A stretch of DNA of 64,000 nucleotides from Escherichia coli (GTDB lineage: Bacteria > Pseudomonadota > Gammaproteobacteria > Enterobacterales > Enterobacteriaceae), in the NCBI RefSeq assembly GCF_003790525.1, contig NZ_CP033635.1; one strand, given 5' to 3'. Within the stretch, counting starts at the first letter, position 1. Every line of letters starts with the position of its first letter. Shown one piece after another: positions 11,307-11,763 of the stretch. The position numbers and the translations under genes are program-made. Under the pieces are notes generated by a model. The model did not search any database and was not told where the DNA came from. It saw only the letters and a list, made by a program, of their open reading frames with translations.

Positions 11307-11763
11307 GAACGTCTGCCCCGCTTGTTGCGGGTATAGTTCTCTACTACACGACTTCTTTCATCGCAGCCTGGTAGATTCGAACAATTCACACAGGAGGCAA
11401 CAATGAGCTACAAAATAGAATTTCTGCGTTTATTATCGGTTCAAGTAAAATAATAAGAATTGATATTTCGAATATGTGTGAATTTACGGAATTGGGTGGT
11501 GAAAGCAACCTGCCATCCATTTTACTGTTCGTGTAAAATTTGTTAGAAGAAATAATTTAATGTAATGTAACGAGCGACCTGATTAATAAAATAAAACATT
11601 CATCTGGGTTATATATTAAAGTTATTTGATGATGAATTGAATTGTCATGAATTGCTAAATAAAGCTTCTTAAATAATATATAATCATGACCACTCTTCGT
11701 TTATGACGTTTCTGTTACACCCATTTTACTGTTTAAACTGTCTCTGATTGAGAGGGATTTCTC

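Follow-up and report, generated by a model that had tools for sequence, protein, structure and literature searches.

Gene order between ydbH and pdxI

The stretch of DNA analyzed here, referred to as the window, is 64 kb in length. It matches the reverse strand of NC_010498.1, the chromosome of Escherichia coli SMS-3-5, with 100% identity. This environmental strain belongs to phylogroup F and sequence type ST354 (PMC11537424). The RefSeq annotation of NC_010498.1 mapped onto the window gives the following arrangement for the ydbH to pdxI segment.

8154-10793, plus strand: ydbH (RefSeq), core gene of the left flank, 97-99% identity to K-12
10790-10975, plus strand: ynbE lipoprotein gene (RefSeq), core
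10983-11306, plus strand: ydbL, 107 amino acids, DUF1318 (Pfam PF07027, E=1.3e-30), the final core gene before the variable segment
11307-11763, no strand assigned: AT-rich spacer of 457 bp with no RefSeq gene, forming a 5' non-coding region of ydbA specific to phylogroup F
11764-17718, plus strand: ydbA, RefSeq "autotransporter domain-containing protein," 1984 amino acids without internal stops
17926-18786, plus strand: pdxI (ydbC; RefSeq), first core gene of the right flank, 96-99% identity to K-12

Downstream of pdxI the order continues with ydbD and then ynbABCD. The first-pass annotation had placed ydbA directly after ydbL across a very AT-rich spacer of 457 bp, and both the RefSeq positions and a GC scan bear this out. 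The gene identities are also right, with YdbL recognized by the Pfam DUF1318 domain and the product of the downstream gene by its BigA-family domains. The C terminus of YdbL in SMS-3-5 (...GKWLQK*) is the form present in other genera, and K-12 and the B2 strains have ...GKWVRKF*.

The ydbL-ydbA interval of K-12 holds the 17 genes feaR, feaB, tynA, paaZ, paaABCDEFGHIJK, paaX, and paaY (b1384-b1400 in MG1655), and paaY is followed by the 21-amino acid ynbG and the ydbA pseudogene, interrupted by IS2 and IS30. The K-12 annotation thus agrees with the order given in the first-pass annotation, in which about 17 genes lie between ydbL and ydbA, and the absence of the cluster from this position in SMS-3-5 is confirmed, with only 457 bp and zero annotated genes in its place. 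The cluster was also sought in the rest of the genome using chimeric probes in which an SMS-specific tag is joined to short K-12 probes, run against all complete E. coli genomes. In a megablast search with eight 200-bp probes (feaR, feaB, tynA, paaZ, paaA, paaF, paaK, and paaX), the SMS-3-5 chromosome matches the tag only, and the same result is obtained by word-11 blastn with six 300-bp K-12 probes, a search sensitive to about 65-70% identity. The paa genes are therefore not found elsewhere on the SMS-3-5 chromosome by DNA-level probes, and their presence nearby in an inverted arrangement is excluded at the same level by these searches. The megablast probes likewise detect no fea, tynA, or paa DNA in any of the 43 genomes carrying the F-type spacer among the matches listed, and no genuine plasmid in PLSDB carries paaABC.

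A survey of 5426 complete E. coli genomes finds paaABC in 3147 of them and not in the other 2279 (42%). The paa locus has been described as a "region of genomic heterogeneity" running from ydbH-ynbE-ydbL to ynbC-ynbD-azoR and reaching into ydbA (PMC4951805), and paa is reported missing in phylogroups B2 and E (PMC5422975); absence of all 17 genes is reported for B2, E, and part of phylogroup A (PMC5422975, PMC4951805). The SMS-3-5 arrangement is an ordinary accessory-gene polymorphism that is already documented, occupying the same interval between the same core flanks (ydbH-ynbE-ydbL and ydbA-pdxI-ydbD-ynbABCD) as the known presence or absence of fea-tynA-paa. What sets the F group apart from the known polymorphism is a 457-bp spacer and a ydbA allele of its own, together with the lack of a deletion scar. 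From the known roles of the genes, SMS-3-5 and other phylogroup F strains are predicted to be unable to grow on 2-phenylethylamine and phenylacetate, and they carry an intact ydbA adhesin gene where K-12 has a pseudogene. Literature searches on SMS-3-5 and phenylacetate yield nothing decisive. Internal-deletion variants of the paa cluster occur among the complete E. coli genomes.

Composition and small features of the 457-bp spacer

The GC content of the spacer is 33.9% overall and 28.3% over 11400-11699, compared with 49.6% for the window. Across the entire 64 kb, GC content reaches its minimum within the spacer for stretches of 300 bp and of 457 bp alike, with only 0.06% (300 bp) and 0.25% (457 bp) of sliding windows being equally low in GC. 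Similarity searches with blastn at word size 7, MAFFT, and shared k-mers against the K-12 flanks, the spacers of other empty sites, and 58 outgroup loci recover only shared AT-rich 10-12-mers. The F-type spacer is present in only 46 of the 5426 complete genomes, at an identity of either 100% or about 96%, and its carriers span several sequence types and hosts, including IAI39, CE10 (ST62, phylogroup F), and SMS-3-5 (ST354).

This distribution bears on the possibility that the spacer is the scar of a recent deletion specific to SMS-3-5, for example one mediated by an insertion sequence. Losses of this kind are known at the locus: IS1 deletions in SCU-172 and LP5-1 have removed ydbA together with its neighbors, an IS3-family insertion lies within the spacer of N32 and CE10, and E. 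coli B has lost the cluster through an IS3 event (PMC3032704). The sharing of one spacer by 46 genomes of several sequence types shows it to be old and lineage-wide, however, and effectively refutes a recent event; in addition neither an IS element nor a fragment of one is present within or next to the spacer in SMS-3-5, and no K-12 flank sequence is left there. A recent strain-specific deletion is accordingly given almost no credence.

Four small features are defined within or at the edge of the spacer.

11306-11340, plus strand: hairpin right after the ydbL stop codon, RNA fold of -14.1 kcal/mol (z = -1.98), without a T-run
11403-11453, plus strand: small ORF of 16 codons (MSYKIEFLRLLSVQVK) from translation, absent from the RefSeq annotation
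11514-11529, plus strand: direct repeat of 16 nt, copy 1 (CATCCATTTTACTGTT)
11718-11733, plus strand: direct repeat, copy 2 (CACCCATTTTACTGTT), 31 bp upstream of the ydbA ATG

The hairpin is a possible terminator of the ydbH-ynbE-ydbL unit; a terminator scan of the spacer finds no canonical intrinsic terminator, the hairpin included. The core of the direct repeat, 13 nt in length, occurs twice in the 64 kb, both times within the spacer, where 0.13 occurrences are expected. CCATTTTACTGTT is present twice in the spacer at a separation of 204 bp with no further copy in the window. The repeat core is missing from the spacers of the other ydbA alleles, and copy 2 differs by one substitution in the IAI39-type haplotype. 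Comparison of the two F haplotypes places most of their differences in 11457-11620, with only one substitution in the 140 bp beside the ATG and none in 11338-11456; with only two haplotypes to compare, this pattern of conservation is a hint.

The small ORF lies within the invariant section and is identical in the second F-type haplotype. It is preceded by AGGAGG at 11392-11397, 5 nt upstream of the ATG at 11403, and the corresponding paaY-ydbA spacer of K-12 contains the annotated 21-amino acid ynbG. These points would fit a spacer that encodes a product of its own, the 16-codon small protein or a small RNA, beyond any regulation of ydbA. Against this, no Rfam family matches the segment 11000-12100 at E<=1, the ORF is unannotated and has no counterpart in the spacers of the other alleles, and the invariance of 11338-11456 makes a very weak argument when drawn from two haplotypes. 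A Shine-Dalgarno sequence followed by an ATG has a chance of about 1% in 457 bp, which is not negligible genome-wide. A separate product is thus considered improbable, and the small ORF may be a chance occurrence.

The first-pass annotation had also proposed the spacer as the likely ydbA promoter region, plausibly bound by H-NS. AT-rich promoters silenced by H-NS precede autotransporter and adhesin genes in E. coli. The SMS spacer resembles these in being extremely AT-rich intergenic DNA directly upstream of a large adhesin gene and differs from them in that its promoter-like sites occur at chance frequency, with two σ70-like sites compared with 2.1 expected in shuffled sequence. A perfect TATAAT is present at 11679-11684 without a good -35 hexamer, and the H-NS high-affinity motif TCGATAAATT is represented by three matches with two mismatches each, as expected for AT-rich DNA. 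Literature searches on H-NS at ydbA yield nothing decisive. The proposal is reasonable from the position and AT-richness of the spacer and is regarded as plausible.

The divergent ydbA alleles and the allelic block

The ydbA gene of SMS-3-5 is an intact member of the ydbA/BigA autotransporter family and a divergent allele of K-12 ydbA. Pfam identifies the BigA_N β-barrel domain (PF25784, E=1.1e-26) and the BigA_beta β-sandwich domain (PF25783, E=1.2e-24); the generic Pfam Autotransporter domain is not reported at E<=0.01. The alignment to the NCBIfam model auto_BigA (NF033178) reaches model position 1874 of 1875 with a score of 1911.5 bits, below the curated cut-off of 3400, which rules out BigA proper and indicates a relative within the family. 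The protein shares with K-12 YdbA (pseudogene b1401/b1405) and the BigA-family type Va autotransporter adhesins the same location by pdxI and a homologous signal peptide and domains. It is distinguished from K-12 YdbA by being intact over its 1984 amino acids, whereas the K-12 gene is broken by IS2 and IS30.

SMS YdbA is homologous along its whole length to an intact K-12-like allele (ST2747, 2163 amino acids), with 53.7% amino acid identity over 1802 residues and a passenger domain at only about 54%; its identity to the ESC818 allele is 86%. The signal peptides of the SMS, K-12, O157, and ESC818 alleles can be aligned, with MQ[KR]K.LLS.C.A.ALS...WA.D being invariant or near-invariant, but the DNA upstream of them cannot. 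At the nucleotide level two features mark the organization of the SMS allele.

11295-16602, plus strand: block without nucleotide-level homology to K-12 (blastn), running from the final 12 bp of ydbL through the spacer and the passenger domain of ydbA
12098-12443, plus strand: tandem array of 16.5 copies of 21 bp (Tandem Repeats Finder), encoding GGNTPDD heptads in the N-terminal linker

Similarity to the K-12 sequence breaks off at 11294, 12 bp short of the ydbL stop codon, and returns only at about 16600 inside ydbA. The difference from K-12 therefore consists of an allelic replacement of ~5.3 kb in addition to the 17 absent genes. The return of similarity is gradual, with the sliding identity to K-12 being 45% at 16300, 80-89% at 16578-17300, 91-94% to 17700, and 96-98% in pdxI; the window from 16603 to 19000 has 92.6% DNA identity to the 3' end of K-12 ydbA and pdxI. 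From 12427, exactly at the end of the 21-bp array, the sequence becomes similar to the ESC818 allele, and the array thus marks an intragenic recombination boundary. The length of the array varies among the F strains.

The regions upstream of ydbA fall into distinct types. In K-12 the interval is divided by the catabolic cluster, with spacers of 171 bp between ydbL and feaR and 330 bp between paaY and ydbA.

F-type upstream spacer: 457 bp, 46 genomes
ESC818-type upstream spacer: 425 bp, 142 genomes
O157/E-type upstream spacer: 413 bp, 375 genomes
K-12-type spacer, downstream of paaY: 330 bp, 2435 genomes, in identity classes from >=99% to 60-80%

Every ydbA allele has an AT-rich upstream region (25-34% GC) of its own, and no alignment is possible between these regions. 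These comparisons distinguish at least four ydbA alleles, all very old and too divergent in DNA sequence to align with one another, and the ydbL-pdxI interval as a whole exists in at least seven structural states in E. coli. Hypervariable surface-antigen loci of E. coli are maintained by homologous recombination in their flanks, examples being the O-antigen rfb region, fliC, and the neighborhood of fimH. The ydbA locus is similar to these in having divergent alleles between conserved flanks, a gradual decay of identity, and mosaic breakpoints at internal repeats. It is unlike them in that no serological or functional typing is known for ydbA and in that the linked catabolic cluster forms a second, independent polymorphism.

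The SMS spacer is best explained as the upstream part of an allelic block within a paa-negative phylogroup F haplotype of the ydbL-pdxI segment, a reading to which we assign a probability of about 0.85. The 5.3-kb block from 11295 to about 16600 would comprise the 5' non-coding region of ydbA and the coding sequence of the passenger domain. Haplotypes would be exchanged by homologous recombination in the conserved flanks, formed by ydbH/ydbL on the left and by the ydbA β-barrel region and pdxI on the right, with an internal crossover point at the 21-bp repeat array. The hairpin at the left end of the spacer may terminate the ydbH-ynbE-ydbL transcript, and the rest of the spacer would provide the promoter and 5' UTR of the intact ydbA, its extreme AT-richness making the binding of an H-NS-type nucleoid protein likely.

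A further reading concerns a 0.8-kb 5' module, found only in the F group, that spans the spacer and the coding sequence for the signal peptide and linker up to the GGNTPDD array. The module would be a xenologous replacement giving the intact F-type YdbA a lineage-specific regulatory circuit, with the small ORF as a leader peptide or the CCATTTTACTGTT pair as an operator pair. This reading is speculative and has a low probability.

Loss, replacement, or acquisition of the fea-tynA-paa cluster

The first-pass annotation had taken the ydbL-ydbA spacer to mark an island junction. The absence on which this was based is real and the segment is known to be variable, but a clean junction is not found, as the gap in homology extends to about 16600 and the spacer has no match to the K-12 flanks. 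Understood as an insertion in K-12, the claim is weakened further by the lack of island hallmarks, by the retention of the ydbL-feaR arrangement in other genera, and by two paa-less lineages that carry deletion scars. ARAGORN, run over all 64 kb in search of tRNA and tmRNA genes, detects no tRNA gene, and no integrase or mobility genes are annotated between ydbL and ydbA in K-12, which has catabolic and regulatory genes only in this interval. The K-12 copies of IS2 and IS30 sit inside ydbA and not at the borders of the cluster. The sole repeat flanking the K-12 cluster is an 11-bp direct repeat, TAACTAATTGG, at positions 20744 and 39737 of the K-12 locus (L002); it has a chance expectation of about 0.03 and is of marginal significance, and no copy is apparent by eye in the SMS spacer.

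The two scarred types, Rb-23 and ST80, are paa-less lineages with K-12-like ydbA alleles, and unlike the F group they keep K-12-like flanks. In the Rb-23 type a deletion of 18,091 bp (K-12 locus 21034-39124), with its junction at a shared GCTATCC, has joined the final 252 bp of feaR to the final 329 bp of paaY, and in the ST80 type the deletion is 18,801 bp (K-12 locus 20673-39473). Neither blastn at word size 7 nor tblastx, with the K-12 cluster and its flanks as targets, detects a feaR or paaY remnant in the SMS spacer, and tblastx gives nothing below E=0.29. The spacer as a deletion or insertion scar relative to K-12 was rejected, there being neither a feaR/paaY remnant nor a K-12-type flanking spacer. 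Taken with the IS1 deletions described above, the two scars indicate that paa loss is frequent and has occurred independently several times.

Outgroup arrangements are divided. In Citrobacter spp., Leclercia, Silvania, and a Klebsiella-like MAG, feaR follows ydbL at a distance of 7 bp, and this adjacency in other genera argues that the fea(-paa) cluster is old at the site. The closest of the sampled outgroups are E. albertii and E. whittamii. E. albertii passes straight from ydbL to pdxI with no fea or paa genes beside ydbL. E. whittamii likewise proceeds from ydbL to pdxI without fea or paa, but 84 bp from the start of ydbA persist there with 90% identity to the O157-type allele, indicating that ydbA occupied this site before E. 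coli arose.

These observations bear on the proposal that the SMS arrangement is the ancestral empty site and that fea-tynA-paa is an island acquired horizontally in the A, B1, and K-12-like ancestors. The lack of fea and paa beside ydbL in E. albertii and E. whittamii is in keeping with such an origin, as is the lack of a feaR or paaY remnant in the SMS spacer. The altered YdbL end of K-12 and B2 (...VRKF*) starts exactly where SMS homology ends, with SMS keeping the inter-genus form, and the TAACTAATTGG repeat flanks the K-12 cluster. Common inheritance, however, is a simpler explanation of the 7-bp ydbL-feaR adjacency than several insertions at one and the same base, and the deletion scars in paa-less lineages with K-12-like ydbA show that absence arises by loss. 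The K-12 cluster has no integrase and the window no tRNA gene, the TAACTAATTGG repeat has a chance expectation of roughly 3% in AT-rich flanks, and K-12 cannot be SMS plus an insertion because the spacer is unrelated to the K-12 flanks. Acquisition of the cluster as an island at an ancestrally empty site is therefore considered doubtful.

For the F lineage itself, the comparisons modestly favor loss or replacement of the cluster over an ancestrally empty site, at little better than even odds. The lack of a feaR or paaY remnant in the SMS spacer counts against this preference. The empty E. albertii and E. whittamii sites, and the C terminus of SMS YdbL, which follows the consensus and beside which the K-12 form looks derived, fit an ancestrally empty site equally well.

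The SMS-3-5 arrangement carries little weight beyond bookkeeping. The by-products of the analysis, namely the seven or more states of the interval, the independent paa losses with scars of 18.1 kb and 18.8 kb, and the divergent ydbA alleles, are of modest use in the population genomics of E. coli. The adjacency of ydbL and feaR in other genera suggests that the catabolic cluster is old at this location and not a recent island.

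Borders and losses of the fea-paa cluster

The K-12 fea-paa cluster (feaR-feaB-tynA-paaZABCDEFGHIJKXY), located between ydbL and ydbA and absent from SMS-3-5, is flanked by an 11-bp direct repeat TAACTAATTGG (positions 20744 and 39737 of the K-12 locus L002) with a chance expectation of ~0.03, and an inverted copy of this repeat lies at position 20774. The cluster has been deleted twice independently with precise endpoints (L070 6422-7000 and L069 6942-7316), the ydbA alleles in both lineages being K-12-like. In one of them 18,091 bp are missing and feaR' is fused to 'paaY, with a microhomology of GCTATCC at the joint; the other removes 18,801 bp. 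The ydbA genes at these two loci are huge, with >2300 codons as a lower bound because the genes run past the locus ends, and their RefSeq label of 'EntS/YbdA MFS transporter' is apparently a mis-naming. Partial loss of the cluster is also common, as the probe matches in complete E. coli genomes place internal deletions in many of those that are paa-positive, E. coli C and isolates from bovine mastitis among them, with feaR joined to paaB-E and paaZ joined to paaK as examples.

The ydbL region in other lineages

The ynbE-ydbL DNA of O157-type genomes (L007 9091-9607) has just ~80% identity to SMS-3-5 and K-12, showing that the divergent block reaches leftwards into core genes. A similar divergence from SMS-3-5 is present in the YdbL encoded at locus L014 (2465-2785), which has 73% amino acid identity and is followed by feaR; the ydbL allele and the presence of paa are thus not strictly linked. 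Two further Escherichia differ at this site, the first retaining a fragment of ydbA.

L013 10716-10799 (E. whittamii): ydbA-start remnant of 84 bp (signal-peptide region) in the ydbL-pdxI spacer

The remnant has 90% identity to the O157-type allele, which implies a loss of ydbA in E. whittamii and an ancient origin of the O157-type 5' end. Escherichia sp. MOD1-EC7003 (L011 5407-7390) has different content again 3' of ydbL, composed of transposase-like fragments and an ORF for a 313-amino acid putative lipoprotein, up to the contig end.

Small features of the spacer and the ydbA repeat array

Two small features are placed within the AT-rich spacer between ydbL and ydbA, and a third lies inside ydbA itself.

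Window 11403-11453: 16-codon ORF MSYKIEFLRLLSVQVK, unannotated, in the spacer
Window 11514-11529 and 11718-11733: direct repeat with core CCATTTTACTGTT, two copies 204 bp apart
Window 12098-12443: tandem array within ydbA, 16.5 copies of a 21-bp unit, encoding GGNTPDD heptads

The ORF is preceded by AGGAGG, a near-perfect Shine-Dalgarno sequence, with 5-nt spacing, and it is unchanged in the second (IAI39-type) F haplotype. Across the full 64 kb the core CCATTTTACTGTT is present at these two places only, against 0.13 expected occurrences, and the regions upstream of the other ydbA alleles lack it. The GGNTPDD array varies in length among F-group strains, and the start of similarity between the SMS and ESC818 alleles (12427) falls at this array.

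Other features of the window

Besides the spacer, the sole stretch of the window with a GC content <34% (300-bp windows) is 1921-2390, the ompN-nifJ (ydbK) intergenic region, where the minimum is 30.7%. Near ttcA-uspF the SMS-3-5 annotation names a porin gene 'ompC', yet it occupies the ompN position. In the window ttcA is followed directly by uspF (~129-303), where K-12 has the Rac prophage between these two genes, so Rac is absent here. The gene for type I glyceraldehyde-3-phosphate dehydrogenase at the gapC position (~33418-34419, minus strand) is intact; K-12 carries gapC as a pseudogene. According to the RefSeq annotation, an IS4 element interrupts ydcO, a BenE-family transporter gene, in SMS-3-5 (~46868-49516, minus strand).
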